A stretch of 64,000 nt of DNA from Dehalococcoidia bacterium. GTDB taxonomy: Bacteria; Chloroflexota; Dehalococcoidia; SM23-28-2; HRBIN24. A program made the position numbers and the translations under genes. The stretch covers positions 72,608-136,607 of the forward strand of contig DATLZD010000021.1 in assembly GCA_035574155.1 (NCBI GenBank), given 5' to 3'. Below are positions 7,814-57,248 of the stretch, one piece after another (position 1 is the first letter of the stretch; each line of letters opens with the position of its first letter). Under the pieces are notes generated by a model. The model was not told where the DNA came from. It saw only the letters and a list, made by a program, of their open reading frames with translations, and did not search any database.

Positions 7814-8917
7814 GTGGCGAGCGTGAGTGGTGAGAGGACGGCGCTGCAGGAGGCGGGGCTCCCGCCGCCTCCCCGCCTGTGGGAGATGAACCTGGACCTG
7901 GAGGTGAAGCCCACCTGGCGGAGAATGCTCACCGGCGACCGGCCCACCGGCCCCCTGCACCTGGGCCACTACGTGGGGTCCCTGCGCTACCGCCTGGCCC
8001 TCCAGGACAAGATAGAGTGCTTCATCATCATCGCCGACCTGCATGTCCTCACCACCCGCACCGAAAGGCTGCAGGAGCTCGAGGCCAACGTCCGGGAGGT
8101 GGTGCTGGACTACTTGGCGGTGGGTATCGACCCCCAGAAGACCACCATCTACCTCCAGTCGCTGGTGCCGGAAGTGCTGGAGATCATGTGGCTGTTCATG
8201 AGCCTGGTGAGCGTGCCCCGTGCCCAGCGGATCCCCACCCTTAAGCAGGCGGTGCGCGACCTTCAGTTGGAGTCGGCATCGGTGGCCCTCCTTTCTTACC
8301 CCATCCTCCAGGCGGCGGACATCCTGATGGTGAAGGGTGACGTGGTGCCGGTGAGCAAGGACAACGCCTCCCACATCGAGCTGACCAGGGAGATAGCGCG
8401 GCGCTTCAACCGCCTCTATCGCCCTATCTTCCCGGAGCCGGACTCGCCCATCGGCCCCCTGCTGGTGGGCTTGGACGGGCAGAAGAAGGCGTCCAAGTCC
8501 CTGGGCAACGTCATCCTGCTGTGCGACGACGCGGACACGGTGCGGCGCAAGGTGCGCAGCATGTTCACGGACCCGCGGCGCATCCGCGCCGACATCCCCG
8601 GCCGCACCCGCGGCAACCCTGTCTTCATCTACCACGACTTCTTCAACGACGACCGGGCGGAGGTCGAGGACCTGAAGCAGCGCTACCGCCGTGGCAAGGT
8701 GGGGGACGTGGAGGTCAAGGAGAAGCTGACCAGGGCCATCAACCGCTTCCTGGACCCCATCCGCGAGCGACGGGCCTACTTCGCGGCCCGCCCCAGGCTC
8801 ATCGAGGAGATCGTCCACGAGGGGTCGCGGCGGGCGCGGGCCGAGGCCCAGCAGACGCTACGGGAGATGCGGGAGGCCATGGGCCTGACCCACTTCCGCC
8901 AGGAGGGGGCACCCTGA
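7814..8917 (+). CDS. trpS: Tryptophanyl-tRNA synthetase
   Basis: HIGH-type motif TGDRPTGPLHLGHYVGSL and KMSKS-type KASKSLG; GTG start at 7814 or 7823 after AGGAGG. Confidence 0.85.
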   Translation: MASVSGERTALQEAGLPPPPRLWEMNLDLEVKPTWRRMLTGDRPTGPLHLGHYVGSLRYRLALQDKIECFIIIADLHVLTTRTERLQELEANVREVVLDYLAVGIDPQKTTIYLQSLVPEVLEIMWLFMSLVSVPRAQRIPTLKQAVRDLQLESASVALLSYPILQAADILMVKGDVVPVSKDNASHIELTREIARRFNRLYRPIFPEPDSPIGPLLVGLDGQKKASKSLGNVILLCDDADTVRRKVRSMFTDPRRIRADIPGRTRGNPVFIYHDFFNDDRAEVEDLKQRYRRGKVGDVEVKEKLTRAINRFLDPIRERRAYFAARPRLIEEIVHEGSRRARAEAQQTLREMREAMGLTHFRQEGAP

Positions 8918-8943
8918 GCGTCTACTGGCCGTCGCTGGCCCAA

Positions 8944-10419
8944 GTGGAGGCGCTGGCCCGGGAGGGCAGGGGTAACTTGTGCCCCGTCCTGCGGGAGGTG
9001 CCCGCTGACCTGGAGACGCCCGTCTCGGCCTTCCTCAAGGTGGCCCGGGGCGCCTATTCCTTCCTCCTGGAGTCGGTGGAGGGCGGCGAGCGGCTGGCCC
9101 GCTACAGCTTCATCGGCACCGAGCCCTATCGGGTGCTGCGCCAGGGCCCCTATGCCCACCCCTGGGACGGGTCTGACCCGCTGCGGGAGGTGGAGTCGGA
9201 GCTGTCCCGCTTCCGCCTGGCCCTGCCGTCGGAGGGGCCGGCGCCGGCCCTGCCCAGCTTCACCGGCGGCGCCGTGGGTTACCTGGCCTGGGAGTGCGTG
9301 CGCCATTTCGAGCCGCGGGTGCCCATCCGCCATGAGGACCCGCTGGGAGTCCCCGAGGCCCTGTTCCTGTTCGTGGACACGCTGCTGGTGTTCGACCACC
9401 TGCGCCACGTGGTGAAGGTGGTGTCCCATTGCCGGCTGGACGGGGAGGTGGCAGCCAGCTACCGGCAGGCCTGCTGGCGAATAGAGGAGCTGGTAGCGAG
9501 GCTGTCGCGCCCGCTGCCCTCCCAGCCCTACGCCGTGCGCAGGGGGGCCGCCCCGACCGGCACCGCCTCCAACGTGGACCGGGAGGCCTTCCTGTCCATG
9601 GTGGAGCAGGCCCGGAGATACATCGTCGCGGGCGATGTCATCCAAGTGGTGCTGTCCCAGAGGCTGTCGCGGCCCACCGCCGCCCACCCCTTCTCCATCT
9701 ACCGCGCGCTGCGGGCCGTGAACCCATCGCCCTACATGTATTACCTGCACCTGGGCGACTTCCAGGTCATAGGGGCCTCGCCGGAGATGCTCGTGCGGGT
9801 GGAGGGCGGGGAAGTGGTGACCCACCCTATCGCCGGCACCCGGCGCCGCGGTCGGACGCCCGAGGAGGACGCTGCCCTGGAGGAGGAGCTGCGGGCCGAC
9901 GAAAAGGAGCGGGCCGAGCACCTGATGCTGGTGGACCTGGCCCGCAACGACATCGGGCGGGTGGCCCTGCCCGGAACGGTGCGGGTGCCCCAGTTCATGG
10001 AGGTGGAGCGCTACTCCCACGTGATGCACCTGGTCTCCCACGTGACAGGCCGGCTTCGTCCCGACCTGACCTGCTACGATGCCCTGCGTGCCTGCTTCCC
10101 AGCCGGCACCGTCTCCGGGGCGCCCAAGATAAGGGCCATGGAGATCATCGCCGAACTGGAGCCTGACCGGCGCGGGCCTTACGCTGGAGCCGTGGGTTAC
10201 TTCGACTATTCGGGCAACATGGACACGGCCATAACCATCCGCACCGTGGTGCTGAAGGACGGCGTCGCGTCCGTGCAGGCGGGGGCCGGCATCGTCTATG
10301 ACTCGGTGCCGGAGCGGGAGTACGAGGAGACCCTGAACAAGGCGGCCGCCCTGCTGACAGCCATCGAACGGGCCGAGGCAGCGGAGGAGGCGATGGTCAC
10401 CGGCAGCCTGGGGTACTGA
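8944..10419 (+). CDS. trpE: Anthranilate synthase component I (TrpE)
   Basis: Chorismate-binding family motifs (LLESVEGGE...; [13 protein letters not shown]); start uncertain: GTG 8944 or CTG 8914 (the latter has GGAGG 7 nt upstream); must begin after the trpS stop. Confidence 0.8.
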
Positions 10420-10435
10420 AGCGGAGGACAGCACG

Positions 10436-11641
10436 TTGAGCGATCTCCTGTCGTTGGTGCCGGAGCCGCTGCGCAACCTGCTGCGTCACCGGTTGCGAAC
10501 GGGCCTGACGGTTATGGGCATCACCATCGGCATCTTTGCCCTGGTGGTCCTGGGGGCGTTGGCGGAGAAGGTGAACCAGTTGGTCGAGGGCGGCGAGGAA
10601 TACCTGTCCAACCGCATAGCCATAACCGATAAAGGGGGAGGGCACCCGTTTTTCGGGGGGTTCGGTCTGGTGCCGGTGTCCTTCGCCGAGAACGTGCGCC
10701 AGGTGCCAGGTGTGGCCTGCGTGGAGACCAGCATCAACCTGCTGCTGGACCCCGAGGGCGGTGCCAGCGTGGGCATGCCCCAGATCATTTCAGGGGTGGT
10801 GGTGGACGAGATCCAGCAGTGCGACCGGGAAGCCCCTTCCCCGGTGGAGTTGAGCTTCGCCCGAGGCGACTGGTGGCGCCAAGGCGAACGGGGCGTAACG
10901 GTGCTCGGGGCCGATGTGGCCGAGCGGCTCAAGGCACGCGTGGGGCAGACCGTGACCCTGCGCGACCACCCCTTCCGGGTGGTAGGCGTCCTGGACCGCA
11001 CCCTCACCGGCCCCGATAACATCGCCTACGTGCCCTTGGACGACGCCCGTGAGCTGCTGAGGGAGTCGCGCCTCTTCTTCTCGGAGATAGACCTATCGGA
11101 CAAGGTGGACACCATCTTCGCCTCGGTCCAGCCCGGCGTGGACGGCGACCGTCTGGCCCGCGATATCGAGGCCCGTTACCCCGACATCCGTGCCTTCGGC
11201 CCCACCGAGCTGAAGGAACCGCTGCAGACCAGCAACATGGTGTTCCAGTTCATCATCCTCGGCGTCGCCATGATCGCCCTCATCGTGGGAGGCCTCTCGG
11301 TCATCAACACCATGGTCATGTCGGTGGCCGAACGGGTCCGCGAGATAGGGATCAAGAAGGCGGTGGGGGCAAGCGATGGCGACATCCTGCGGGAGTACCT
11401 GGCCGAGGCGGTGGCCATCGGCGCCCTGGGCGGCCTGCTGGGGCTGTTGGCCGGCTCCCTGGCGGTCATGGTCCTGAACGACTTCGCCCGCGAGGCGGCC
11501 GGAGGCCCCGTCTTCCTGGTGACGGGACGGCTGGCAGCCGGCTCGGTGGCCTTCGCCGCCTTCCTCGGCGCCGTGGCCGGCCTGCTGCCCGCCTTCCGGG
11601 CGGCGCGGCTGCGGCCGGTGGAGGCCCTGCGGTCCGAGTGA
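10436..11641 (+). CDS. ABC transporter permease, FtsX/MacB-like (MacB periplasmic core + C-terminal 4-TM FtsX domain)
   Basis: N-terminal TM, large extracytoplasmic domain and C-terminal FtsX-type TM bundle; TTG start with GGAGG 8 nt upstream. Confidence 0.75.
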   Translation: MSDLLSLVPEPLRNLLRHRLRTGLTVMGITIGIFALVVLGALAEKVNQLVEGGEEYLSNRIAITDKGGGHPFFGGFGLVPVSFAENVRQVPGVACVETSINLLLDPEGGASVGMPQIISGVVVDEIQQCDREAPSPVELSFARGDWWRQGERGVTVLGADVAERLKARVGQTVTLRDHPFRVVGVLDRTLTGPDNIAYVPLDDARELLRESRLFFSEIDLSDKVDTIFASVQPGVDGDRLARDIEARYPDIRAFGPTELKEPLQTSNMVFQFIILGVAMIALIVGGLSVINTMVMSVAERVREIGIKKAVGASDGDILREYLAEAVAIGALGGLLGLLAGSLAVMVLNDFAREAAGGPVFLVTGRLAAGSVAFAAFLGAVAGLLPAFRAARLRPVEALRSE

Positions 11642-11656
11642 GGAGGTAAGAGTCCC

Positions 11657-12388
11657 GTGGCACAGGAAAGGGTAGCCGGCCAACTGCTCCAGGCGGAGCA
11701 GGCCATCATCGAGGCGCGGGGCCTGGTCAAGACCTACCGCCTAGGAGGCGGCGTGGTGCGGGCGTTGGACCATGTGGACCTGACGGTGGAACGGGGCGAA
11801 CTGATGGCGGTCATGGGACGCTCGGGCTCCGGCAAGACCACCCTGCTGAACGTCCTGGGAGGCCTGGACCGCCCCGATGAGGGGCAGGTGGTCATCGACG
11901 GCGTGGACATCGCCCGCCTTAATGGGCGCCAACTGCCACGGCTGCGCCGCGAGAAGGTGGGCTTCGTCTTCCAGGAGTTCAACCTGATCCCCACCCTGAC
12001 GGCCCTGGAGAATGTTGAGCTGCCCCTTCGCTACGCTGGGGTGCCCAGGGCAGAGCGACGGCGGAGGGCCATGGAGGCCCTGGCCCTGGTCGGCATGGAC
12101 CACCGCGCACGTCACCGGCCGTCCCAGCTATCGGGGGGAGAGCAGCAGCGGGTGGCCCTCGCGCGGGCGCTGGTCAGTCGACCGGCCATCGTCCTGGCGG
12201 ACGAGCCCACGGGGGAGCTGGACACTCACACAGCGGCGCAGGTGATGGAGCTGGTCCAGCGCCTGAACCGGGAGACGGGCCAGACCTTCATCATCGTTAC
12301 CCACGACCCGGCCATCGCCCAACGCTGTCGTCGGGTGGTGCGCATGGAGGACGGACGCATCGTCAGCGACCAACGCCAAGGAGAGTGA
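11657..12388 (+). CDS. ABC transporter ATP-binding protein (MacB/LolD-type)
   Basis: Walker [10 protein letters not shown], signature LSGGEQQR, Walker [13 protein letters not shown]; GTG start 10 nt after AGGAGG. Confidence 0.85.
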
Positions 12389-12397
12389 CGGTCCGGG

Positions 12398-12406
12398 TGC
12401 TATAAT
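12398..12406 (+). promoter_or_regulatory. Extended -10 promoter TGcTATAAT in front of the toxin-antitoxin pair
   Basis: Perfect TGnTATAAT read in sequence; the predicted TSS is ~4 nt before ATG 12417, implying a leaderless antitoxin mRNA. Confidence 0.35.
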
Positions 12407-12416
12407 GGGGCCAGCC

Positions 12417-12662
12417 ATGACCAGGGAACGCTTACATCGTCTCATAGATCGAGCCTCCGAGGAGGACTTGGCCATTGTTGAGCACCTCCTCCTTCACCTG
12501 TTGGCCTGTCGCGATCCGGTCTTGCGCAGCCTGATCCGTGCCCAAGCCGAGGAGGAGGGCCTGACACAAGCGGATGAGACGGCCGTCGAAGGGGGACTTC
12601 GGGACGTCCGCGAAGGACGGACGCGACCCACGGCCGAGGTTCGCCGCCTCCTCGGACTGTGA
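12417..12662 (+). CDS. Putative type II antitoxin (small acidic protein, family not assigned)
   Basis: 81-aa acidic protein whose stop overlaps the RelE/ParE start by GTGA; ATG 12405 is an alternative start. Confidence 0.5.
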   Translation: MTRERLHRLIDRASEEDLAIVEHLLLHLLACRDPVLRSLIRAQAEEEGLTQADETAVEGGLRDVREGRTRPTAEVRRLLGL

Positions 12663-12919
12663 GCTGGCAAGTAGAGTGGAGCGAGCGGGCGATAACCGAC
12701 CTGCGTTGGCTGCCCGCGCGGGACGCCAAAAGGGTCATCGAGGCAGTGGAACGATACGCCCAGTCGGGTCACGGCGACATACGTAAGATCCGGGGCAGGG
12801 ACGCGCTGTTCCGGTTACGTATTGGGACTTGGAGAGTCCTGTTCACCCCCGACGTCGACTCTCGACGCATCTACGTGCTCACGGTCAGGCACCGTAGGGA
12901 GGCCTACCGGGACATGTGA
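12659..12919 (+). CDS. RelE/ParE-family type II toxin
   Basis: 86 aa with the typical RelE/ParE pattern; GTG start overlapping the antitoxin stop. Confidence 0.7.
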   Translation: MSWQVEWSERAITDLRWLPARDAKRVIEAVERYAQSGHGDIRKIRGRDALFRLRIGTWRVLFTPDVDSRRIYVLTVRHRREAYRDM

Positions 12920-12946
12920 GGTCGCGAAGGCTAGAGGTGGTGAACG

Positions 12947-13513
12947 TTGGTCCTGCTAATCGATAACTACGACAGTTTCACCTACAACCTCTACCAGCTC
13001 CTGTCGGAGCTGGGCGCAGAGGTGTTGGTGGTGCGCAACGACCGCACGACCGTCGACGACGTCGAGGCCATGCGTCCTCAGGGCATCGTCATCTCCCCCG
13101 GCCCCTGCACGCCGCGAGAGGCAGGCATATCGGTGGAGCTGGTGCGACGGCTGGCCGGCAGGGTGCCCATCCTTGGGGTCTGCCTCGGTCACCAGTGCAT
13201 TGGCGAGGCCTTCGGTGGGCGAGTGGTGGGTGCCGGCGAGATCGTCCACGGCAAGACGTCCCTCGTCCACCATACGGGCCAGGGCGTCCTGCGGGGCCTG
13301 CCCGACCCCTTCCCGGCCGTCCGCTACCACTCGTTGGTGGTGGAGCGGGACTCGCTGCCGGAAGAGCTGGAGGTGACGGCCTGGACGGACAAAGGCCTGG
13401 TCATGGGGCTGCGCCACCGCCGCCTGCCGGTGGAGGGGGTCCAGTTCCACCCCGAGTCCATCGCCACCCCGGTGGGCAAGCAGATACTGCGGAACTTCCT
13501 GGGGTCGCTATGA
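12947..13513 (+). CDS. trpG: Anthranilate synthase component II (glutamine amidotransferase TrpG/PabA)
   Basis: LLIDNYDSFTYNL start and GATase triad context GVCLGHQ; TTG start after AGAGGTGG. Confidence 0.85.
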   Translation: MVLLIDNYDSFTYNLYQLLSELGAEVLVVRNDRTTVDDVEAMRPQGIVISPGPCTPREAGISVELVRRLAGRVPILGVCLGHQCIGEAFGGRVVGAGEIVHGKTSLVHHTGQGVLRGLPDPFPAVRYHSLVVERDSLPEELEVTAWTDKGLVMGLRHRRLPVEGVQFHPESIATPVGKQILRNFLGSL

Positions 13514-14541
13514 TCCGCGAGGCCATCGCTGCCCTGGTCAACGAGGGCCGCCACCTGTCAGAGGAGGAGGCGGCCGCCGTCATGACAGAGGTGATGGAGG
13601 GGCAGGCCACCCCCGCCCAGCTGGCCGCCCTCCTGGTGGCCCTACGCCTGCGAGACGAGACGGTGGACGAGCTGGTGGGCATGGCCCGCGTCATGCGCCG
13701 CTTCGCCCTGCGCGTCCCCCTGGAGCCTCCCCTCCTGGACACTTGCGGGACCGGCGGCGACGGCCGCGGCACGTTCAACGCCTCCACGGCGGCAGCCATC
13801 GTGGCGGCGGCGGCCGGGGCGCGGGTGGCCAAGCACGGCAACCGTGCCGCCTCCTCCCGCTGCGGCTCCGCCGACCTGCTGGAAGCCCTGGGCGCCCGCA
13901 TCGAGCTAGGACCGGAGCAAGTGGCCCGCTGCGTGCAGGAGGTGGGCATGGGCTTCATGTTCGCCCCCTCCTTCCATCCGGCCATGAGGCACGCAGCCGC
14001 CCCCCGGCGGGAGATCGGCCTGCGCACCGTCTTCAACCTTCTGGGCCCCCTCACCAACCCGGCCGGGGCCAGCCACCAACTGCTGGGGGTCCCAGACGCC
14101 GCCGTCGGCGAGAAGATGGCCCAGGCCCTTCTCCGCCTCGGCGTCCGCCGGGCGCTGGTGGTCCACGGCAGCGACGGTCTGGACGAGGTCAGCCCCTCGG
14201 CACCGACCCTTGTCTGGGAGGTGGCGGGGGGAGACGTGCGCCACTACCAGGTGGCCCCCGAGGACGCCGGCCTGGCGCCGGTGCCCTTGACGGCCGTTTG
14301 CTCCAGCGACCCCCAGGAGAACGCGGACCTGCTGCGGGCGGTGCTCTCGGGCCAGCGGCTCCCCCTGCGCAACTTCGTGCTCCTCAACGCCGGCGCCGCC
14401 CTGATGGCCGCCGAGATGGTCGGGAGCTTGAGGGAGGGCGTGGCCCTCGCCGCCGAGGCCATCGATAGCGGCGCCGCAGCCCGTAAGCTGGAAGAGTTCG
14501 TTGCCGCCACCCAGGGCCTGGCCGAGGCGGTGTCCCCATGA
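13510..14541 (+). CDS. trpD: Anthranilate phosphoribosyltransferase
   Basis: Motif GTGGDG and TrpD-family features; ATGA overlap with the trpG stop. Confidence 0.9.
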   Translation: MIREAIAALVNEGRHLSEEEAAAVMTEVMEGQATPAQLAALLVALRLRDETVDELVGMARVMRRFALRVPLEPPLLDTCGTGGDGRGTFNASTAAAIVAAAAGARVAKHGNRAASSRCGSADLLEALGARIELGPEQVARCVQEVGMGFMFAPSFHPAMRHAAAPRREIGLRTVFNLLGPLTNPAGASHQLLGVPDAAVGEKMAQALLRLGVRRALVVHGSDGLDEVSPSAPTLVWEVAGGDVRHYQVAPEDAGLAPVPLTAVCSSDPQENADLLRAVLSGQRLPLRNFVLLNAGAALMAAEMVGSLREGVALAAEAIDSGAAARKLEEFVAATQGLAEAVSP

Positions 14542-18831: not shown

Positions 18832-18968
18832 CACCCTCCAGTATGCCATAGGACACGGCCGTGGCGCGGCCGCCTGTGCCTTTCGCTGCTGCAACGGGTA
18901 TAATGGCTTAGTGCAATATCGTGGCGCCGCCCGCTGGTCGACGGCGCTGGGAGGGTGAGGTCTAGACC

Positions 18969-20369
18969 GTGGACAGGAAGCCGCGCACCGTCGGGGAGCT
19001 GAGGGACTCCGGCTACAAGATCCTCTCCGTAAAGGCGGAAATGCGCAAGAACCTCATCGAGAAGATGCGGCGCCGGGAACCCCTCTTCCCGGGCATCATC
19101 GGCTATGACGAGACCGTCATCCCCCAGCTACAGAACGCCATCCTGGCCGGACAGGACATCATCTTCCTGGGAGAGCGGGGACAGGCCAAGTCGCGCCTCA
19201 TCCGCTCCCTGGTGGGCCTGCTGGACGAGGAGATACCCATAGTCGCCGGCTGCGAGATCAACGACAACCCCTTCGCCCCCATCTGCCGCCGCTGCCGCGA
19301 GTGGCTGGCCGAGGAGGGGGACAACGTAGAGATAGAGTGGATCGACCGAGAGCGGCGCTACGGCGAGAAGCTGGCCACCCCGGACATCACCATCGCCGAC
19401 CTCATCGGCGAAGTGGACCCCATCAAGGTGGCCGAGGGGCGCTACCTGGCCGATGAGCTGACCATCCACTACGGCCTGATTCCGCGCCATAACCGGGGCA
19501 TCTTCTGCATCAACGAGCTGCCCGACCTGGCCGAGCGCATCCAGGTGGGACTGCTGAACATCATGGAGGAGCGCGACGTCCAGATCCGCGGCTACCGCAT
19601 CAGGCTGCCGCTGGACGTGTTGGTGGTGGCATCGGCCAACCCCGAGGACTACACCAACCGTGGCCGCATCATCACCCCCCTCAAGGACCGCTACGGCGCC
19701 CAGATCCGCACCCACTACCCGCGCACGGTGGAGCATGAGATCGCCATCATGGAGCAGGAGCGCACCGTGTTCGAGGGGGAGGAGGAGAGGCCGGTCCAGA
19801 CTCCCCAGTTCATGAAGGAGATCGTGGCCGAGGTGACTCGCCTGGCCCGTCGCAGCCCGGACGTCAACCAGCGCTCCGGCGTTTCGGTGCGGGCGTCCAT
19901 CACCAGCTACGAGGCCCTGCTGGCCAACGCCCTGCGCCGCGCCATCCTGCTCGACGAGCCGGTGGCCGTCCCCCGCATCACCGACCTGCCCTACATCCTG
20001 CCCGCCCTCTCGGGCAAGCTGGAGTTCGAGACGGTGGAGGAAGGCAGGGAGGACCAGATCATGGAGCGGCTGCTCCAGGGCGCGGTGCTGGCCGTCTTCA
20101 ACCGCTACTTCAGCATCGGCGAGCTGGACAAGGTGGTGTCCCGCTTCCGCGGCGGCTATGTGGTGGAGGTCTCGGACCTGGCCCCGGCCGACGCCTACGA
20201 GGCCATCGCCCACCAGGTGGAGGGCCTGCAGGAGGCGGCCAAGAAGCTGGAATGCGACGGGAGCCCCCAGCTCCTGGCATCGGCGGTCGAGTTCGTGCTG
20301 GAGGGCCTCCACCTCAGTAAGCGCCTCAACAAGGAGAGGCTGGCCGGTCGTGTCCAGTACCGGTCGTGA
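18969..20369 (+). CDS. AAA+ ATPase, Mg-chelatase ChlI/BchI-like (COG1239-type)
   Basis: Walker A GERGQAKS and ChlI-like AAA+ core; GTG start after GGAGGGTGAGG. Confidence 0.75.
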   Translation: MDRKPRTVGELRDSGYKILSVKAEMRKNLIEKMRRREPLFPGIIGYDETVIPQLQNAILAGQDIIFLGERGQAKSRLIRSLVGLLDEEIPIVAGCEINDNPFAPICRRCREWLAEEGDNVEIEWIDRERRYGEKLATPDITIADLIGEVDPIKVAEGRYLADELTIHYGLIPRHNRGIFCINELPDLAERIQVGLLNIMEERDVQIRGYRIRLPLDVLVVASANPEDYTNRGRIITPLKDRYGAQIRTHYPRTVEHEIAIMEQERTVFEGEEERPVQTPQFMKEIVAEVTRLARRSPDVNQRSGVSVRASITSYEALLANALRRAILLDEPVAVPRITDLPYILPALSGKLEFETVEEGREDQIMERLLQGAVLAVFNRYFSIGELDKVVSRFRGGYVVEVSDLAPADAYEAIAHQVEGLQEAAKKLECDGSPQLLASAVEFVLEGLHLSKRLNKERLAGRVQYRS

Positions 20370-20400
20370 GCCCCAGGACCCCATCGTCCAACGGCCCCAC

Positions 20401-20874
20401 ATGCCCGGCTACGGCCTGGAGAAAGTAACGGCCAGGCCCCTGCCCTGGGACTGGGCCGAAGAGCGTCTTCGGGCCAGCCATAACTACTTCGTCAGCACTG
20501 TATCGCCCGACGGACGGCCCCACTGCGTCCCGGTCTGGGGCGTGTGGACAGGCGGCATGTTCTTCTTCAGCAGCGGGCCGCGGTCGCGCAAGGCCCGAAA
20601 CCTGGCCAGCTCGCCCCGCTGTGTCGTCTGCACCGAGGGCGGGAGAGAGGCAGTCATCGTCCAGGGGGAGGCAGAAGAGGTGAGGGATGAGGCCACCTTC
20701 AGCCACTTCGCCGATGCTTACGAGGCCAAATACAACTACCGGCCCCAGCAGGGGGCTGACCTGGTCTTCGCCGTGAGGCCTGAGGTGGCCTTCGGGTTCG
20801 TCGAGAGCGAGGATTTCCCGGCTACGGCCACCCGCTGGCGTTTCGGCGCCCCGCGGGGCACAGGACGCACATGA
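20401..20874 (+). CDS. PPOX-class pyridoxamine 5'-phosphate oxidase family protein
   Basis: 157 aa from MPGYGLEK...; split-barrel PPOX/general stress protein 26-like pattern. Confidence 0.6.
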   Translation: MPGYGLEKVTARPLPWDWAEERLRASHNYFVSTVSPDGRPHCVPVWGVWTGGMFFFSSGPRSRKARNLASSPRCVVCTEGGREAVIVQGEAEEVRDEATFSHFADAYEAKYNYRPQQGADLVFAVRPEVAFGFVESEDFPATATRWRFGAPRGTGRT

Positions 20875-20887
20875 AGGGGTGGATAGC

Positions 20888-22969
20888 ATGACTTGGCTCT
20901 ATCGCTACTCCGAGTGGGACGGCACGCAAGAGATACCGCCCCTGGACCCGGACGAGATCCTCTCGGCCATCACCGATGACCTCATGAACTTTGGCGACCT
21001 GCAGCACGCCCTGCGCAACCTGCTGCAACGGGGCCTGCGGGGGCCCATGGGCCAGCGCATGCAGGGCCTGCGCGACCTCCTCCAGCGGCTGCGCCAGAAC
21101 CGCCGCCAGATGCTGGACCGCTACAACCTTAGCTCCCTGTTCGAGGACCTGGAGAGGCGGGTGCAAGAGGTCCTGGACCTGGAGCAGGAGACGCTGAGGC
21201 GTCGCCTGGAGGAGGCCGAGCGCCAGCTTCAGGGCCAGCCGGGTTCGCTGCAGCCCTTCCAGGAGGCGCTGGGCCAGAGCGGTCAGCAGGAGAGCCAGGG
21301 GGACGACGCCCGCAACATGGCCCAGATGCTAAAGAACATCGCCCAGCGCAAGCAGGACTACCTCAGGAACCTGCCCCAGGACCTGGGCGGCCGCATCAAG
21401 GGCCTACAGGAATACGAGTTCATGGACCCCGAAGCGGCGGCCAAGTTCCAGGAGCTCATGGAGATGCTGCGCCAGGCCATGCTGGACGCCTTCTTCAAGG
21501 ACCTCTACAACCAGCTGGCCGGCCTCACCCCGGACCAGCTCCAGCGCCTTAAGGAGATGGTCCGCGACCTGAACCGCCTGCTGTCGGAAAAGATGGCCGG
21601 CGGCCAGCCTGACTACCAGTCCTTCCTGGACAAGTATGGAGACCTGCTGGGCCCCAACCCTCCCCAGTCCCTGGACGAGCTGGTCCAGCGCATGCAGCAG
21701 CAGATGGCCGCCATGCAGAGCCTCCTGGACAGCCTGCCGCCGGAGATGCGGCGCCAGCTCCAGGACCTGCTCATGGACAAGGTGGGCGACCCGGAGCTGA
21801 TGCGGGAGCTGCAGGAGCTGGCCATCAACCTGGACATCCTGGCCCCGCTGCGCGACCTGGAGAACCAGTACCCCTTCCGCGGCGACGAGACCCTGGACCT
21901 GCTCCAGGCCATGCGCCTCATGGAACACATGCAGGGGCTGGACGAGCTGGAGCGCCAGCTAGAGCGCGTCCAGTACGGCGGCTCCCTGGACGACATCGAC
22001 GAGGAGCGGCTCCGGGAGCTGCTGGGCGAAGAGGCCTACCAGACCTTCCGCCAGCTGAAGGAGCTGCTGGAGGTCCTGGAGCGGGCCGGCTACATCCGCC
22101 GTCGGGGCCAGGAATGGGAGCTGACGCCCAAGGCCATCCGCCGCATAGGCCAGAAGGCCCTGGGCGAGATCTACGCCCAGATCAAGAAGTCGTCCTACGG
22201 CAAACACGCCAGCCGGGAGCGGGGGCCCGGCACCGAGCGCACCGAGGACACCAAGCGCTACGAGTTCGGTGACCCCTTCCACCTGCACCTGGGCCAGACG
22301 GTCTTAAACGCCGTGCTGAGGGAAGGCCCCCAGGTCCCCGTGCGCCTGGGCAAGGACGACTTCGAGGTCTACTCCACCGAGCACCTGACCACTACCGCCA
22401 CCGTCATGATGCTGGACCTGTCCTGGTCCATGGCCCTGCGCGGCTCGTTCCAGGCAGCCAAAAGGGTGGCCCTGGCCCTCTACAACCTCATCAAGACCCA
22501 GTTCCCCAAGGACGTGCTCTACATCCTGGGCTTCTCGGCCTACGCCCGCGAGCTGAAGCCCGAGGAGCTGCCCTATGTCCGCTGGGACGAGTCGGTGCTG
22601 GGGACCAACATGCACCATGCCCTCATCCTGGCCCAGCAGCTCCTCTCCCGCCATCGGGCCGGCACCCGCCAGATCATAATGATCTCCGACGGCGAACCCA
22701 CGGCCCACCTAGAGCACGGCCGTTCCTACTTCTCCTACCCGCCCAGCCCCATCACCATCCGCAAGACGCTGCAAGAGGTGAAGCGCTGCACCCAGAAGGG
22801 CATCGTCATCAACACCTTCATGCTGGACCGCAACTACTACCTGAAGGAGTTCGTGAACCAGATCGCCAAGATGAACAAGGGGCGGGTTTTCTACACCACC
22901 CCGGACAAGCTGGGCCAGTACATCCTGGTGGACTACGTGGCCCAGAAGCGCAAGCGGGTCATGGGCTGA
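20888..22969 (+). CDS. von Willebrand factor A (vWA) domain protein with a long coiled-coil-like N-terminal region
   Basis: C-terminal vWA domain with the MIDAS motif DLSWS...; N-terminal ~450 aa is Q/L/E/R-rich and helical; GTG 20879 is an alternative start. Confidence 0.75.
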   Translation: MTWLYRYSEWDGTQEIPPLDPDEILSAITDDLMNFGDLQHALRNLLQRGLRGPMGQRMQGLRDLLQRLRQNRRQMLDRYNLSSLFEDLERRVQEVLDLEQETLRRRLEEAERQLQGQPGSLQPFQEALGQSGQQESQGDDARNMAQMLKNIAQRKQDYLRNLPQDLGGRIKGLQEYEFMDPEAAAKFQELMEMLRQAMLDAFFKDLYNQLAGLTPDQLQRLKEMVRDLNRLLSEKMAGGQPDYQSFLDKYGDLLGPNPPQSLDELVQRMQQQMAAMQSLLDSLPPEMRRQLQDLLMDKVGDPELMRELQELAINLDILAPLRDLENQYPFRGDETLDLLQAMRLMEHMQGLDELERQLERVQYGGSLDDIDEERLRELLGEEAYQTFRQLKELLEVLERAGYIRRRGQEWELTPKAIRRIGQKALGEIYAQIKKSSYGKHASRERGPGTERTEDTKRYEFGDPFHLHLGQTVLNAVLREGPQVPVRLGKDDFEVYSTEHLTTTATVMMLDLSWSMALRGSFQAAKRVALALYNLIKTQFPKDVLYILGFSAYARELKPEELPYVRWDESVLGTNMHHALILAQQLLSRHRAGTRQIIMISDGEPTAHLEHGRSYFSYPPSPITIRKTLQEVKRCTQKGIVINTFMLDRNYYLKEFVNQIAKMNKGRVFYTTPDKLGQYILVDYVAQKRKRVMG

Positions 22970-22991
22970 CGACTTGCGGTCCCGGCAATAG

Positions 22992-23342
22992 ATGCGTGTG
23001 CTCACAGCGTCAGCAGGACGCCGCTGGCGCTGGCTCCAGGCCGGTGCCCTGGCGGTCCTTTTCTTCGGCCTGTTGCCCCAGTTCGTCTACCTGGGCCACT
23101 GGGGCCCTGGCCATGAGGAGATAAACTCCCCCCAGGAGGCAGCTGAGCATGCCCGCCACTGCCACCTGGGGCCCTCCACCTGCGCCGACAGCGGCGGCAA
23201 GGTGGCCGTGGCCCCGCCTGTCGCCCCAGTCCTCATCCTGGCCGCCTGCACCCTCTTCCTCCTGCTGACCACAGGGACGACGCCGACACCTCAGCTCCTC
23301 CCTCAGCGGCCCCTGCAACCCCCTCGCGCCGCCCGAGCGTAG
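22992..23342 (+). CDS. Small two-TM membrane protein with a His/Cys-rich loop (HWGPGHEE...HARHCHLGPSTC)
   Basis: Two hydrophobic helices flank a metal-ligand-rich loop; no SD, start uncertain. Confidence 0.35.
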   Translation: MRVLTASAGRRWRWLQAGALAVLFFGLLPQFVYLGHWGPGHEEINSPQEAAEHARHCHLGPSTCADSGGKVAVAPPVAPVLILAACTLFLLLTTGTTPTPQLLPQRPLQPPRAARA

Positions 23343-23390
23343 ACTTTCTGGACCATATACCCACGCCGACGCGAGGGAGGTAAGTGCGCC

Positions 23391-24011
23391 GTGTGGCGAC
23401 TATCGTTGCTGTCCCTGTTGGCCCTTGGACTCGCCCTCGTGGCGCTGGCCCCCGGAGCGGCCTTGGCCCACGAGCGGCGGACGGTGGGCGCCTACACCTT
23501 CATCGTGGGCTTCATGAACGAGCCGGCCATCGCCTACTACCCCAACGCCCTGGACTTGCGGGTCCAGGACGCCTCCGGCCAGCCGGTGACGGGGCTGGAG
23601 CAGACGCTCCGGGCCGAGGTCATCGTGGGCGGAGGCGCCCAGCGCCGAGCGCTTGAGCTGGAGCCGGCCTTCAACCAGCCGGGCCGCTACTTCGGCTATT
23701 TCATCCCCACGCTGCCGGGCGACTACACCTTCCGCATCTACGGGCAGGTGGGAGGGCAGACGGTGGACGAGAGCTTCACCTCCGGCCCGGGACGGTTCGA
23801 CCCGGCTGCGGATCCGGCCGAGCTGCAGTTCCCGCGCCAGATGCCGACCACCATCGACCTGCAGCAGTCCCTGGCCCAACGAGAGGGGGGCTCCGGCAAC
23901 GATGGCCTGGTGGCCCTGGCGCTGGGCATCGGCGCCGCCGCCCTGGCGGTGGCCTCCATCGACGCCGGCCTGCGCATCTGGGGAGCTGTGGCTGCCCGCC
24001 GCGAGAGGTAG
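23391..24011 (+). CDS. Secreted, C-terminally anchored protein, YcnI-like (putative copper-binding; mature N-terminus begins with His)
   Basis: Signal peptide ...APGAALA|HERRTV; His as first mature residue, FMNE motif and C-terminal TM helix as in DUF1775/YcnI proteins. Confidence 0.45.
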   Translation: MWRLSLLSLLALGLALVALAPGAALAHERRTVGAYTFIVGFMNEPAIAYYPNALDLRVQDASGQPVTGLEQTLRAEVIVGGGAQRRALELEPAFNQPGRYFGYFIPTLPGDYTFRIYGQVGGQTVDESFTSGPGRFDPAADPAELQFPRQMPTTIDLQQSLAQREGGSGNDGLVALALGIGAAALAVASIDAGLRIWGAVAARRER

Positions 24012-25775
24012 GTGGGACAGGTGAGGACGAAGGCGGCCCGAGCATTCTTATGCCTGTTGGCCCTGGTGGTGGCCTGGGCCCTGGGTGGGATGCCCAGGGC
24101 CCACGCCCACGCTAACCTGGTGCGCTCCGACCCGCCCATGAACGGCTCCGTCTCCCAGGCACCCTCGGAGGTCCTGCTCTGGTTCAGCGAGCCCGTGGAC
24201 GCCCGTTTCAGCCGCATCCAGGTGGTGGACTCGTCCGGCCAGCGCTGGGACAACGACGACGCCCACCTGCACTTCGACGACACCAACCTGGGCGTGACCC
24301 TCAAAGGGGGGATGCCCGAGGGCACCTATACGGTGGTCTGGAGTGCCCTTTCGGCCGTGGACGGGCACCGCACCGTCGGCAGCTTCGCCTTCACCGTGGG
24401 GCGCGTCGCCACGCTCCCTGCTCCGGCCGCGGTGGTGGCCGAGAGTGCAGGCCCATCGGGGCCGCCCAAGGCCGTGCGCACCCTCGCCACGTGGCTGGAG
24501 CTGGCTACCGTCATCGGGCTGGTGGGGGCAGTGTCCTTCTACCTGCTGGTGGCCCGACGGGCCACCGCTGTGTTGGAAGGCGGCCGCGAGCTGGCAGAGG
24601 TGAGGGCTGCGGCCCTGGCACGGCGCTGGACCGTCGCGCTGGCCGTGGCCTGCCTCCTGGCATCGGGCCTGGTCATATGGATGAGGGCCTGGGAGGCCGC
24701 GGGGAGCGCGGCTGCCTGGAAGGCAGCGGGCCAGCTCCTGACGGACTCGTCGTTCGGCCGCGCCCTCATCGTGCGGGCAGCCCTCCTTGCGACGGCGGGC
24801 TACCTGGGGTCGCTCCTGTTCCGCCCCGGCCTACAGCACGGGGCCTATCACTGGATGCTGCTGGGGGTGGCAGCGGCGGTGCCAGCCACCGTTAGCCTGA
24901 GCGGGCACGCCAACGCCCAGGACCCGGCCGCCCTGCGAGTGGCCCTCGACTGGGCGCACCTGACGGCGGCAGGCATCTGGGTGGGGGGCCTAGTCCAGAT
25001 GGCCCTCTTCCTCGCCCTGGTGCCCGCACACGGTGGCACCAGGCCCGCACTGCTGGCGGCCCTGGTGCCCCGTTTCTCGCTGCTGGCGCTGGCCTCGGTG
25101 GGGGTCATCGCCGTCACGGGGCTGACCCAGGCGTTGCTGACCATGGGAAGCCCAGGCCAACTGGCCAGCTCTGCCTATGGCCGCGCCCTGGTAGCCAAGA
25201 GCGCCCTCTTCCTGCCCTTGTTGGCCCTGGGGGCCTTCAACCTGCTGCTGGTGCGGCCCCGGTTGGAGTCGCTGGCCCGGACGGCCCGCTCCGCCCTTCA
25301 GGCCCTCCGGCCGTGGGAGTGGAGGCTGCGGCGGGCCGTGCTGGGCGAGGTGTGCCTGGCTGTGGCGGTGGTGGGCATTACCGCCTTTCTGGTCAACACG
25401 GCGCCCCCTGCCAGCCCAACAGCCTCGGCGGGCCAGCAGGAGCCAGTGGGCGTCGTCAACAAGGCCCGCGCCGACGACCTGTCGCTGACCCTCCTCGTCA
25501 ACCCCGGCCGCGCCGGCCCCAACTGGGTCCAGCTATACATCACGGACACCAACGGCGACCCCCGGCCCGTCCAGCTGGTCCTGGTCCGCTGGCGCTACCT
25601 GGAACAGGACCTGGGGACGGTGGAGGAGCAGATGGAGCCGCTGCATCCGCCAGAGCACTACATTCTGGAAACCCAGCAGCTCAGCCTGCCCGGTCGCTAC
25701 CAGGTGCAGGTCATCGTGCGGCGAGAGGGGCTGCTGGACAGCCGGGCCACCTTCCAGGTGGACATCGCACAGTAG
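24012..25775 (+). CDS. Copper resistance/uptake protein CopC-CopD fusion (YcnJ-like)
   Basis: Signal peptide then H-ANLVRSDP (CopC His1), CopC cupredoxin-like domain, and a C-terminal CopD multi-TM domain. Confidence 0.8.
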   Translation: MGQVRTKAARAFLCLLALVVAWALGGMPRAHAHANLVRSDPPMNGSVSQAPSEVLLWFSEPVDARFSRIQVVDSSGQRWDNDDAHLHFDDTNLGVTLKGGMPEGTYTVVWSALSAVDGHRTVGSFAFTVGRVATLPAPAAVVAESAGPSGPPKAVRTLATWLELATVIGLVGAVSFYLLVARRATAVLEGGRELAEVRAAALARRWTVALAVACLLASGLVIWMRAWEAAGSAAAWKAAGQLLTDSSFGRALIVRAALLATAGYLGSLLFRPGLQHGAYHWMLLGVAAAVPATVSLSGHANAQDPAALRVALDWAHLTAAGIWVGGLVQMALFLALVPAHGGTRPALLAALVPRFSLLALASVGVIAVTGLTQALLTMGSPGQLASSAYGRALVAKSALFLPLLALGAFNLLLVRPRLESLARTARSALQALRPWEWRLRRAVLGEVCLAVAVVGITAFLVNTAPPASPTASAGQQEPVGVVNKARADDLSLTLLVNPGRAGPNWVQLYITDTNGDPRPVQLVLVRWRYLEQDLGTVEEQMEPLHPPEHYILETQQLSLPGRYQVQVIVRREGLLDSRATFQVDIAQ

Positions 25776-25789
25776 GAGGGGGAACCGAT

Positions 25790-25930
25790 TTGGAGTGGGG
25801 AACGGCCTTTCTGCACGCCATCGGCCACGAGTCCACCTTCGGCGTGGTATTCCTGGCAGCGGTGGTGGGCGGCCTGGCCTTGCTGGCCTTCATGGCCTCC
25901 CGCGCCGAGAGAGGGAAGCGGGGCAAATAG
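25790..25930 (+). CDS. Unannotated 46-aa single-TM peptide downstream of copCD
   Basis: TTG start 7 nt after AGGAGGGGG, 14 nt after the copCD stop; sequence MEWGTAFLHAIGHESTFGVVFLAAVVGGLALLAFMASRAERGKRGK. Confidence 0.3.
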   Translation: MEWGTAFLHAIGHESTFGVVFLAAVVGGLALLAFMASRAERGKRGK

Positions 25931-53752: not shown

Positions 53753-54685
53753 GTGCCCGCGTTGGCGGGTCGCACCTTCCGCGTCGGCACCCGAGGCTCA
53801 CGCCTGGCCCTCGCCCAGACAGAGCTTGCCCTGGCAGCGCTGCGTTCCGTCCGCCCCGACATCTCCTTCCAGGTGACGGTGGTCCGCACGCGGGGCGACC
53901 GGGACCAGCACACCCCCCTCTCCCGCCTGGGGGGCCGCGGCGTCTTCGTGGCCGAGCTGGAGCAGGCCCTGTTACGGGGGGAGGTGGACATCGCCGTCCA
54001 CAGCCTCAAAGACCTGCCCTCGCGGCCCGCCCCTGGACTGGTCATCGCCGCCGTCCCCCTGCGGGACGACCCCCGCGACTGCCTGGTCTCCCGCCAAGGC
54101 CTTACCCTGGACTCTCTCCCGCCGGGGGCCGCGGTGGGCACGGGCAGCCCCCGCCGGGCCGCCCAGCTCCGTGCCCTGCGCCCCGACCTGACGGTGGCCG
54201 AGATCCGCGGCAACGTGGACACCCGCGTGCGTAAGGTGATGGAGGGGGAATACGACGCCGCCGTGCTGGCCCTGGCCGGCCTGCGCCGCCTGGGGCTGGC
54301 CGACAGCTCTGTCCACCCCCTGGAGCCCGAGACGATGCTGCCCGCCCCCGGCCAGGGGGCCATCGCCCTGGAGGTCCGGGGGGACGATGCTGAGGCCCTG
54401 GCCCTTTGCCGCGCCGTTGATGACCCTGTCGTCCATGCCTGTGTGACAGCCGAGAGGGCCTTCGAGGCCCAGTTCGGCGGCGGCTGCAGCGCCGTGGTGG
54501 CCGCCCTGGCCGTGGCCCAGGGCGAGACCATTTGGCTGCGGGGCCTGGCCGCCGCTGCCGAGGGCATGGCCTTCTTTCGCGGCGAGGCCCGCGGTCCCCT
54601 GGCCGAAGCGGAGGCGGTAGGCCGCGGCCTGGCCCATGAGCTGCTGCGACGGGCGGCCGGGGCCCTGCAGGCGCGGGAGGCATGA
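53753..54685 (+). CDS. hemC: Hydroxymethylbilane synthase (porphobilinogen deaminase)
   Basis: FRVGTRGSRLALAQT N-terminus is typical of HemC; GTG start. Confidence 0.9.
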   Translation: MPALAGRTFRVGTRGSRLALAQTELALAALRSVRPDISFQVTVVRTRGDRDQHTPLSRLGGRGVFVAELEQALLRGEVDIAVHSLKDLPSRPAPGLVIAAVPLRDDPRDCLVSRQGLTLDSLPPGAAVGTGSPRRAAQLRALRPDLTVAEIRGNVDTRVRKVMEGEYDAAVLALAGLRRLGLADSSVHPLEPETMLPAPGQGAIALEVRGDDAEALALCRAVDDPVVHACVTAERAFEAQFGGGCSAVVAALAVAQGETIWLRGLAAAAEGMAFFRGEARGPLAEAEAVGRGLAHELLRRAAGALQAREA

Positions 54686-56238
54686 CAGTGGGCGAGGCCA
54701 GCGGCAAGGTCTGGCTGGTTGGGGCGGGCCCCGGCGACCCTGGCCTCATCACCGTGGCCGGCCTGGAGGCCCTGCGCCAGGCCGACGTGGTGGTCTACGA
54801 CCGGCTGGTCTCGCCCCTCCTCCTCACCCACGCCCGTCCCGACGCCGAGCTGCTGTTCGTCGGCAAGGAGGGAGGAGGCGAGTCCTTCCCCCAGCGCGAT
54901 ATCGAGCGCCTGCTGGTGGAGAAGGCGCGACAGGGGAAGCGAGTGGTGAGGCTCAAGGGGGGCGACCCCTTCGTCTTTGGTCGGGGCGGTGAGGAATGTC
55001 TCGCCCTGGCCGAGGCCGGCGTCCCCTTCGAGGTGGTGCCCGGCGTCACCTCGGCCGTGGCTGCCCCCGCCTACGCCGGCATACCCGTAACCCACCGGGG
55101 CCTGTCCTCATCACTGGCCATCGTCACCGGCCACGAGGACGCCGCCAAGGCCGGGTCATCCCTGCGCTGGGACCGGCTCGCTACGGCCGCCGACACCCTG
55201 GTGGTCCTGATGGGGACCCGGACGCTGTCAGAACTGGTGGAGAGACTCCTGGCCCATGGCCGCCCGGCCGACACCCCGGTGGCGGTGGTGCGCTGGGGCA
55301 CTACGCCCGAGCAGGAGGTAGTGACGGGGACCCTGGCCGATATCGTGCCCAGGGTGGAGAAGGCAGGCCTGAGGCCTCCCACCGTGGTCGTGGTCGGCCA
55401 GGTGGTCCGCCTGCGCCAGCGCCTGCTGTGGTTCGAGCGTCGGCCCCTCTTCGGACGGCGGGTGCTGGTGACCCGCGCCCGACACCAGGCGGGGGAACTC
55501 TCGCGCATGCTGCTGGAGGCGGGCGCTTTACCTGTCGAGGTCCCGGTCATAGAGATCGAGCCGCTCGATGAGGGACCGGCGGCGGCCAAGGCCCTGGACG
55601 GCCTGGCCCGGGGGGACTATCGCTGGCTACTGTTCACCAGCGCCAACGCTGTGGACCACTTCTTCCGGCTGCTGGAGGCCCGTGGCCGCGACGCCCGTGC
55701 CCTGGCCGGAGTGCGGGTAGCGGCCATCGGCCCCGGCACGGCCCAGGCCCTGCATGCCCGCGGCATACGCCCCGACCTGCTGCCGCGGGAGTTCGTCGCC
55801 GAGGGGTTGGCAGCGGCCCTCTCGCCCCACCTACGCCCCGGCGACGGCGTCCTGCTCCCCCGGGCCGAGGAGGCCCGCCCAGCCCTGGTGGAGGCGCTGG
55901 CGGCCGTCGGCGCCAGGGTGGACATCCTCCCCCTCTACCGGACCCGCCTGCCCAAGGACGTCCCCCGAGGGGCCATCGAGATGCTGCGTCAGGGGGAGAT
56001 AGACGCCGTGGCCTTCACGGCCTCCTCCACGGTCCGCAACCTGGCAGCCCTCCTGGGCGAGGACGTGGGCCGACTCCAGCGGGTCACCATCGCCTGCATC
56101 GGCCCCATCACGGCGCGCGCCGTGCGGGAGGTCCTGGGCCGCTCCCCGGACGTGGTGGCCCAAGAGTATACTATGGCAGGACTGGTGGAGGCCCTCTGCC
56201 GCCAATTGGGGCCTGCCCGTGCCCCGGAAGGGAGCTGA
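54682..56238 (+). CDS. cobA: Uroporphyrinogen-III C-methyltransferase / uroporphyrinogen-III synthase fusion
   Basis: N-terminal SUMT motif [15 protein letters not shown] plus a C-terminal HemD domain. Confidence 0.85.
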
Positions 56239-56243
56239 GAGCC

Positions 56244-57233: not shown

Positions 57234-57248
57234 TGCTCCCCCTGGGCC

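Follow-up and report, generated by a model that had tools for sequence, protein, structure and literature searches.

A YcnJ-type copper cassette beside a widespread AAA+/vWA gene pair in a Dehalococcoidia genome: probably two independent modules

Introduction

Pairs made up of an AAA+ ATPase and a protein with a von Willebrand factor A (vWA) domain and its metal ion-dependent adhesion site (MIDAS), such as BchI/D, CoxD/E and NorQ/D, are an established precedent in metal-centre maturation, and in BchD/ChlD the N-terminal half is itself AAA+-like. The copper proteins CopC and CopD were originally named for a role in resistance. In Bacillus, the YcnJ protein sustains the heme-copper oxidases when copper is limiting, and the function of its YtkA domain overlaps that of CtaK (PMC13344008). 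In the published model of YcnJ function, Cu(II) is transferred from YcnI to YcnJ (PMC8424229, PMC12362106, PMC13344008); in BsYcnI the Cu(II) ligands include His27, the first residue after cleavage, and Glu50, with Trp137 capping the copper site (PMC8424229). Here we analyze a block of seven genes, G1 to G7, in which genes reminiscent of both kinds of system lie side by side in a 64,000-nucleotide stretch of DNA from a Dehalococcoidia bacterium (contig DATLZD010000021.1, positions 72,608 to 136,607; hereafter the window).

The block encodes, in order, a ChlI/BchI-like AAA+ ATPase (G1), a PPOX-class protein (G2), a vWA protein (G3), a small membrane protein (G4), a secreted and membrane-anchored protein with a predicted N-terminal His (G5), a CopC-CopD fusion (G6) and a micro-protein (G7). 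An earlier note, made from the letters of the window, had proposed that all seven constitute a single unit for the delivery and insertion of copper. Comparison with other genomes leads us to conclude that the block is probably two independent modules, an AAA+/vWA pair and a copper cassette, that have come to lie next to one another in one narrow Dehalococcoidia-related lineage.

Results

The AAA+/vWA genes and the copper genes are linked only among close relatives

In a forward test of linkage, 80 species-representative GTDB loci were fetched by alignment of G1 homologs, with up to 10 kb of flanking sequence, and were searched by tblastn with all seven proteins. These loci came from the Chloroflexota, Rokubacteria, Dormibacterota, Binatia, Actinomycetota and Gammaproteobacteria, with G1 identities of 56–72%. 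Among the 64 loci with enough sequence, G3 lay directly downstream of G1 in 39 and within 10 kb on the same strand in a further 8 (47/64 in total). It was not found within 10 kb of G1 in the remaining 17, including L003 (Tepidiforma flava), L005, L007 and L008, and in these the vWA partner is either elsewhere in the genome or dispensable. No homolog of G4, G5, G6 or G7 occurred within 10 kb of G1 in any of the 80 loci.

For the reverse test, 80 metagenome loci were fetched by alignment of the G5 family. In 68 of them the G5 homolog was immediately followed by a CopC-CopD gene, the exceptions being mostly truncated contigs, and a G4 homolog was directly upstream in 23. Sequence from G1 or G3 was present in only five (L092–L095 and L154), and because the G3 sequences of these loci are 83–100% identical to that of the window we regard them as close relatives. 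Distant cassettes (L088–L091) sit amid genes for Fe-S assembly, Fur, glycosyltransferases and B12-binding proteins, and none of them is accompanied by an AAA+/vWA gene.

Close relatives of the window indicate that either module can be lost without the other. At 97% G1 identity the full seven-gene arrangement is kept, and gene callers called the identical set of seven genes. The more distant 'bacterium HR25' (86% G1 identity) keeps DUF6391, VTT, G1, G2, G3, hydrolase, glyoxalase, diacylglycerol (DAG) kinase, RecF and RecJ genes and is without G4–G6; after its G3 comes only a 46-codon open reading frame that aligns with G7 at the DNA level, though its His residues and basic tail are gone. An 83% relative carries the G1–G3 stretch without the PPOX gene, followed by a gene for a TrkA-type channel. 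The converse deletion is found on contig L092, where the region upstream of G1 and some 38 G1 codons (with a frameshift) are joined to the final ~90 codons of G3 (from codon ~607), and where intact G4 (90%), G5 (84%) and G6 (93%) follow this remnant. Directly upstream of the remnant (L092:9226-9582) is an IS256/Mutator-family transposase gene (L092:7876-9093, minus strand; PF00872, 4.9e-74), beyond which lie polysaccharide-synthesis genes and not the trp/DUF6391/VTT backbone. These surroundings, together with the transposase, suggest that the L092 cassette was relocated along with scraps of its former neighbours. On this contig the cassette has thus persisted in the absence of an adjacent AAA+/vWA pair, and it has probably moved.

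The forward linkage, the reverse linkage and the separate losses in close relatives together argue for two independent modules, which is the reading we consider probable. Several points weigh against it. Only 22 nt separate G3 from G4, with neither an intergenic terminator nor a recognisable internal promoter, such that the seven genes may form one transcript and be co-regulated; the juxtaposition of G1 with the copper genes is maintained in several of the strains sampled (G1 identity 93–97%); the client of the AAA+/vWA pair may itself be metal-related; and L092 and L154 are metagenome contigs that could be mis-assembled. In addition, the L092 genome may carry intact copies of G1 and G3 at another site. 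It is possible that all seven genes are co-transcribed, which would signify co-regulation and not necessarily a shared function.

The same packing and strain-to-strain stability, along with the precedent of BchI/D, CoxD/E and NorQ/D, are what speak for the contrary proposal of the earlier note, in which the AAA+/vWA pair would be a metallochaperone that inserts the copper imported by CopCD into a client enzyme, with all seven genes serving one system. However, this proposal does not survive the check on co-occurrence (0/80 in the forward direction, close relatives only in the reverse direction, and either module deleted independently), and copper cassettes elsewhere do without the AAA+/vWA genes. 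Moreover, G1 and G3 would be cytoplasmic, no signal peptide being seen in their sequences, whereas G4–G7 are predicted to lie at or outside the membrane, and the block contains no gene for a cuproenzyme. We therefore regard a single system as very improbable.

Another of the five loci, L154, is a short contig (L154:1-1224) in which the 3' end of the vWA gene is 100% identical to that of the window (26 aa) and G4 is identical to the L082 type, and in which the mature G5 domain represents a subtype that is distant (47% identity; HERRVVAGKYQF). Either recombination or chimeric assembly must have produced this contig.

The two sets of genes also differ in how fast they have diverged. Relative to L082, one of the relatives with 97% G1 identity, G3 is 96% identical, trpB 92%, G2 73%, G4 49%, G5 79% and G6 74%; as judged from these sequences, G1/G3 and G4–G6 appear to be under different selective regimes. 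We considered replacement of the cassette by recombination as an explanation for the far lower conservation of G4–G6, and rejected it as unproven; other flanking genes diverge to a similar degree.

G4–G7 resemble a YcnJ-type copper acquisition cassette

G6 matches both CopC (PF04234, 5.7e-21, residues 33–129) and CopD (PF05425, 7.8e-18, residues 350–460) above the gathering scores, in agreement with its earlier description as a CopC-CopD fusion, and matches the NCBIfam models of stand-alone CopC and CopD (NF033808 and NF033814) below their equivalog cut-offs. Its C-terminal 122 aa resemble YtkA (PF13115) weakly (E=0.032, 15.3 bits against a cut-off of 25.9, covering 82/85 profile positions). 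The protein bears a predicted signal peptide and, as read from the translation, its CopC domain has HANLV as the mature N-terminus, a VDGH motif and two Met only, while the CopD portion contains the motifs SGHA and HLTAAGIWVGG. The CopC domain thus looks like the Cu(II)-only type, with an N-terminal His and D-x-H and without a Met-rich Cu(I) site, that has been described for YcnJ (PMC8424229).

Many of the CopC-CopD genes that adjoin G5-family genes end not in a YtkA-like domain but in a cytochrome c domain (CxxCH; Cytochrom_C), for example L088:8764-11079 and also those of L110, L111, L115, L117, L122, L134 and L147. This ending hints at a redox step in copper handling or import.

In an alignment of the G5 family, A26-H27 is invariant (40/40) directly after a hydrophobic, signal-like helix, and forms part of AHERR in G5 itself. 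The invariant features are A-H-E-x-R at the predicted cleavage site (judged by eye), E44-P45, N52, Y100 and FxSGPxxF, followed by a linker and then a transmembrane helix at the C-terminus; E28 and E44 are both invariant, and there is no invariant Trp. An AlphaFold model (predicted local distance difference test score, pLDDT, 88) has an eight-strand beta-sandwich spanning residues 27–130 and a helix at residues 172–205, and its best fold match is the Helicobacter pylori copper resistance determinant CrdA. The earlier note had called G5 a YcnI-like secreted protein starting with His, and had pointed to its fold as a check. The layout and the first-residue His stand, and the predicted beta-sandwich is closest to periplasmic copper proteins, but membership in DUF1775 does not hold: none of 40 G5-family members matched DUF1775 even at E<=10. 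Searching PDB sequences with a profile of the family yielded nothing useful and no YcnI. Nine of the 40 members matched the YtkA Pfam model weakly (best E 1.3e-4), and an hhalign alignment of 80 columns connected the family with the C-terminal domain of G6-family proteins (55% probability, E 1.2e-4). Given the lack of DUF1775 matches, the weak YtkA matches and the hhalign link, G5 is read as an analogue of YcnI drawn from YtkA/CrdA/P19-like fold space, as the model would suggest, and not as a YcnI homologue. Clustered at 50% identity, the family counts 2,361 representatives at a threshold of E<=1e-3 and 596 at E<=1e-30.

Neither G4, G5 nor G7 belongs to a Pfam or NCBIfam family, and their orthologs are without precomputed Pfam matches; G4 lacks a Pfam match even at E<=10. 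The G4 alignment reveals a transmembrane helix at the N-terminus, the invariant motif (E/K)HAxHCH[LVI]GPxxC and, at the C-terminus, a conserved tail resembling PEKPP[RQ]. G4 had been described as having two transmembrane segments. The second hydrophobic segment is not conserved in relatives, however, and G4 is therefore probably a single-pass protein. Homologs of G4 are also found directly upstream of the G5-family gene in L091. G7, a 46-aa peptide with one transmembrane helix as described previously, has an N-terminal His pair (FLHAIGHES) and a basic tail, and is conserved in close relatives. Peptides with the same arrangement (xLHx(2-5)H, transmembrane helix, basic tail) follow CopCD in L090/91, L102, L123 and L146, and because these loci are otherwise unrelated we take G7 to be part of the cassette. 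Both small proteins thus appear from their gene neighbourhoods to be recurrent accessories of it.

Together, these features make it reasonable to view G4–G7 as a self-contained, YcnJ-type cassette for the acquisition of extracytoplasmic Cu(II), consistent with the uptake module that the earlier note had recognized. The analysis shows which genes and domains are present, how they are conserved and linked, that either module has been lost separately, and what fold is predicted for G5; we infer metal binding, the direction of transport and co-transcription alike. In the mechanism we envisage, membrane-tethered G5 would first capture Cu(II) through the amine and imidazole of its N-terminal His, probably together with an invariant glutamate, E28 or E44, in a site that would resemble a monohistidine brace. 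Copper would then be received by the Cu(II) site in the CopC portion of G6, and the CopD membrane domain of G6 would move it inward, with the YtkA-like C-terminal domain perhaps helping to load respiratory oxidases. G4, by way of its Cys/His motif (HCHxGPxxC), and G7, by way of its His pair, would probably bind or relay copper or assist assembly.

A cassette for copper resistance or sequestration, like the plasmid-borne CopCD of Pseudomonas, is a different way to read the same four genes. It would fit the original naming of CopC and CopD and the match of G5 to CrdA. However, the N-terminal His and DGH of the G6 CopC domain and its lack of a Met-rich Cu(I) site are those of the importer YcnJ (PMC8424229), the cassette is without a CopA/CopB multicopper oxidase, an efflux ATPase or a copper sensor, and the CopC-CopD fusion with its weakly YtkA-like C-terminus resembles the architecture of YcnJ, which supports growth under copper limitation (PMC13344008). 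Resistance is thus unlikely, and acquisition remains the function that we favor for G4–G7.

G1 and G3 form a conserved pair related to Rv0958/Rv0959

G1 matches AAA_5 (4.1e-6) and, weakly, BchI-ChlI, and its closest solved structures are ChlI/BchI (2e-10). Its match to TIGR02030 (1.3e-13) scores 50.8 bits against a cut-off of 466.95 and does not reach the equivalog level. Of the MoxR-class profiles, AAA_3 (22.4 bits against 27) and bpMoxR (17.4 against 27) also fall short; the generic AAA_5 alone passes. An alignment of G1 homologs reveals a normal Walker A motif (GERGQAKS) and a Walker B motif of the form hhhhNE, in which N182-E183 is invariant in the family at a position where AAA+ proteins normally have Asp-Glu. 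Between the two motifs are three cysteines that are invariant in the family, Cys95, Cys106 and Cys109. Relatives of G1 are 73–97% identical across the Chloroflexota and 56–72% identical in about six phyla.

G3 matches VWA_2 (1.5e-6, residues 508–606) and has an intact MIDAS (DLSWS...T...D); the DxSxS motif is kept in 53/56 of its relatives. Its N-terminal region is helical, with no Pfam match to an AAA+ domain, and a search of PDB sequences with G3 gave nothing useful. The descriptions of G1 as ChlI/BchI-like and of G3 as a vWA/MIDAS protein are accordingly upheld. G3 orthologs (77–96% identity) carry precomputed matches to two Pfam domains of recent definition, Mb0984_helical (PF27532) and Rv0959_3rd (PF27098), which places the pair with Rv0958/Rv0959 of Mycobacterium tuberculosis. 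From sequence comparison, then, G1/G3 appears to be a strongly conserved two-gene pair with G3 in the Rv0959 family, and we infer from gene order, annotation and length that G1 is the counterpart of Rv0958.

Clustering of neighbours in the 80 G1 loci identified G3 as the only recurrent real partner, with no conserved third neighbour. The remaining clusters were shadow open reading frames or scattered, unrelated genes (response regulator, ABC ATPase, luciferase-like, GDPD), and no gene for a client enzyme (chelatase H subunit, carbon monoxide dehydrogenase, nitric oxide reductase or RuBisCO) was conserved near G1/G3. By analogy with BchI/BchD and the MoxR-vWA pairs, the vWA/MIDAS domain of G3 would hold a client protein by an acidic residue while the ATPase G1 remodelled it in an ATP-driven manner. 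Nothing ties that client to copper.

We found no functional study of Rv0958/Rv0959, MSMEG_5512 or COG4867 in the literature searched. MSMEG_5512 was not associated with DNA after pull-down (PMC7092591), and a screen for B12 resistance in Mycobacterium marinum recovered a transposon insertion 49 bp upstream of the Rv0958 ortholog (PMC11237697). In the 83% relative, the other strand carries genes of the CbiA/CobQ type, for CobD/CbiB and for an aminotransferase, a few kb upstream of G1/G3 (L086:3063-7280, L087:3070-7280). These cobalamin genes and the M. marinum insertion constitute a weak lead to the function of the pair.

The lead bears on the possibility that the pair supplies the I-like (G1) and D-like (G3) subunits of a class I tetrapyrrole chelatase, such as a cobaltochelatase with its CobN/ChlH-type subunit encoded elsewhere, and has nothing to do with the copper genes. 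Both proteins match TIGR02442, a putative cobaltochelatase, weakly (G1 1e-10, G3 0.0017), and the similarity of G1 to BchI-ChlI and to the ChlI/BchI structures is in keeping with this assignment. But the scores are far short of the family cut-offs (50.8 vs 467 bits, 40.7 vs 779 bits), the helical N-terminal region of G3, with no Pfam AAA+ domain, is unlike BchD/ChlD, and no large CobN/ChlH-like neighbour recurs among the neighbour clusters of the 80 loci. We judge a chelatase quite unlikely, and retain the description of G1/G3 as a pair of the Rv0958/Rv0959 type.

G2, which separates G1 from G3 in the window, belongs to the PPOX class as proposed (PNPOx_N, 4.6e-17). Its suggested dependence on F420 was not established, as it scores 63 bits against the cut-off of 79 for the F420-type TIGR03618, and the F420-type subfamily models in general are below their cut-offs. 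G2 is present in the 97% and 86% relatives and absent from the 83% relative, and a PPOX gene occurs in 1/80 of the GTDB G1 loci; on this distribution its insertion between G1 and G3 appears to be lineage-specific.

Organization of the locus

All seven open reading frames are present and co-directional, as the earlier note had listed them (Table 1), and the gaps between them, from G1 to G7, are 31, 4–13, 22, 48, 0 and 14 nt, within the range of 0–48 nt that it had given. Third-position GC is 0.81–0.93 in G1 and G3–G6, the five that passed the filter of the listing (G2 and G7 fell outside it), and in a genome whose GC content, 68–73% in the window, is high this is typical of real genes. G5 is 100% identical to a deposited protein from a Dehalococcoidia metagenome-assembled genome, and G1 is 94% identical to its counterpart in 'bacterium HR24' and 72% identical to that of Tepidiforma flava.

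Table 1 Features of the block and of the surrounding window.
Feature	Position in window	Strand	Description
G1	18969..20369	+	466-aa ChlI/BchI-like AAA+ ATPase
G2	20401..20874	+	PPOX-class, flavoprotein-like, PNPOx_N; alternative GTG start at 20350, overlapping G1 by 20 nt
G3	20888..22969, or start at 20879	+	693–696 aa; helical N-terminal region and C-terminal vWA domain
G4	22992..23342	+	116-aa membrane-anchored protein, no Pfam family
G5	23391..24011	+	206 aa; signal peptide, beta-sandwich, C-terminal transmembrane anchor
G6	24012..25775	+	587-aa YcnJ-type CopC-CopD fusion
G7	25790..25930	+	46-aa micro-protein, TTG start
TATAAT hexamer	18899..18904	+	Possible -10 element
Upstream flank			trpE, MacB/ABC pair, trpG-D-C-F-B, DUF6391, divergent VTT/DedA gene
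Downstream flank			Convergent alpha/beta hydrolase, then glyoxalase, DAG-kinase-like gene, RecF, RecJ
Split trp operon	8521-14541		MacB/FtsX permease and ABC ATPase genes between trpE and trpG
Tetrapyrrole biosynthesis cluster	54682-59262		HemD/uroporphyrinogen methyltransferase fusion, HemB, class-III aminotransferase gene
tRNA-Sec	59340-59436		Rfam 74.9 bits; ARAGORN anticodon TCA

A TATAAT hexamer lies ~64 nt upstream of G1, in a divergent intergenic region of ~140 nt shared with the VTT/DedA gene, and in L092 it persists in the form TATCAT despite the deletion of G1–G3. It may be a -10 element, in what is the only obvious promoter region of the block. A scan for consensus promoters found none in the block and did not call this hexamer; terminator-like hairpins were intragenic, with none between genes; and neither Rfam nor tRNA scans turned up a regulatory RNA close to the block. 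An inverted repeat in the G4–G5 spacer, picked out by eye as a candidate CsoR-like operator, was dropped, being short and of a spacing that is not conserved in relatives.

The genes that flank the block are ordinary. The trp operon upstream is split by the two transporter genes, a layout also present in L081 and L082, the 97% relatives. Farther downstream, ~30 kb from G1/G3, is a tetrapyrrole biosynthesis cluster, and no gene for a chelatase H or CobN subunit was seen in the parts that were examined. The tRNA-Sec gene has a class-III aminotransferase gene on one side and an HD-domain phosphohydrolase gene on the other, with a primase gene just downstream; neither flanking gene nor the primase gene is selA or selB.

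Discussion

Our findings carry a caution about gene order: tight packing had suggested a system at the level of the operon, and comparison with relatives undid that suggestion. A single system, had it been real, would have given the uncharacterised Rv0958/Rv0959 family a function. A related scenario, in which the copper cassette was captured into the AAA+/vWA transcription unit in a thermophilic Dehalococcoidia-related clade and only then became functionally coupled to it, such that imported copper is handed to a client matured by the motor, would likewise reveal the function of a family conserved from the Chloroflexota to the mycobacteria, but we hold it to be most doubtful. Ranked above it, and with a chance we put at about half, is the idea that G5, G4 and G7 represent three undescribed copper-handling families that partner CopCD in place of YcnI in the Chloroflexota.

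What the two modules offer when taken separately is of interest in each case. Bacterial copper import is poorly understood, and G5, G4 and G7 are concrete candidates for parts in it and alternatives to YcnI; G5 in particular typifies a sizeable unannotated family (~2,400 clusters at 50% identity) that is almost always found beside CopC-CopD. G1/G3, for its part, shows greater conservation than trpB in this lineage and occurs widely among phyla, and so stands out as a housekeeping system that deserves a study of its own.

Among described systems, the AAA+/vWA module compares most directly with Rv0958 ('possible magnesium chelatase') and Rv0959 (a vWA protein), which have a matching two-gene arrangement. 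G1 shares the database name of Rv0958 and is about the length of its M. marinum ortholog (a 1,392-bp gene), and the window pair differs in having a PPOX gene between G1 and G3. The adjacency of an AAA+ ATPase gene and a vWA/MIDAS gene is also found in BchI/BchD (ChlI/ChlD) and in the MoxR-vWA pairs CoxD/E, NorQ/D and CbbQ/O. Yet BchD has an AAA+-like N-terminal half, whereas none was detected in G3, and the MoxR-vWA maturation chaperones are distinguished by a MoxR-class profile and an adjacent client operon, neither of which G1/G3 has.

The copper module is closest to that of Bacillus subtilis. G6, with its weakly YtkA-like C-terminal domain, appears to have the CopC-CopD-YtkA order of YcnJ, and the CopC domain is apparently Cu(II)-only in both. 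In ycnKJI, however, ycnJ precedes ycnI and there is a YcnK-type repressor, whereas in the window G5 precedes G6, no such repressor is present in the cassette, and two additional small membrane proteins, G4 and G7, are encoded. Like G5, YcnI has a signal peptide, a His as the first mature residue, a beta-sandwich ectodomain, a C-terminal transmembrane anchor and a gene beside CopCD; unlike G5, it has DUF1775 and a conserved Trp. The beta-sandwich proteins of the CtaK (formerly YtkA), CrdA and P19/FtrA types are 11–14% identical to G5, with all scores below the family thresholds, and G5 differs from them in its own invariant AHERR motif and in being anchored at the C-terminus, not through a lipid at the N-terminus. 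What is new in the window is therefore a YcnJ-type cassette with a partner that has a predicted N-terminal His and does not belong to DUF1775, and with two undescribed small partners, beside a widespread, uncharacterised AAA+/vWA pair.

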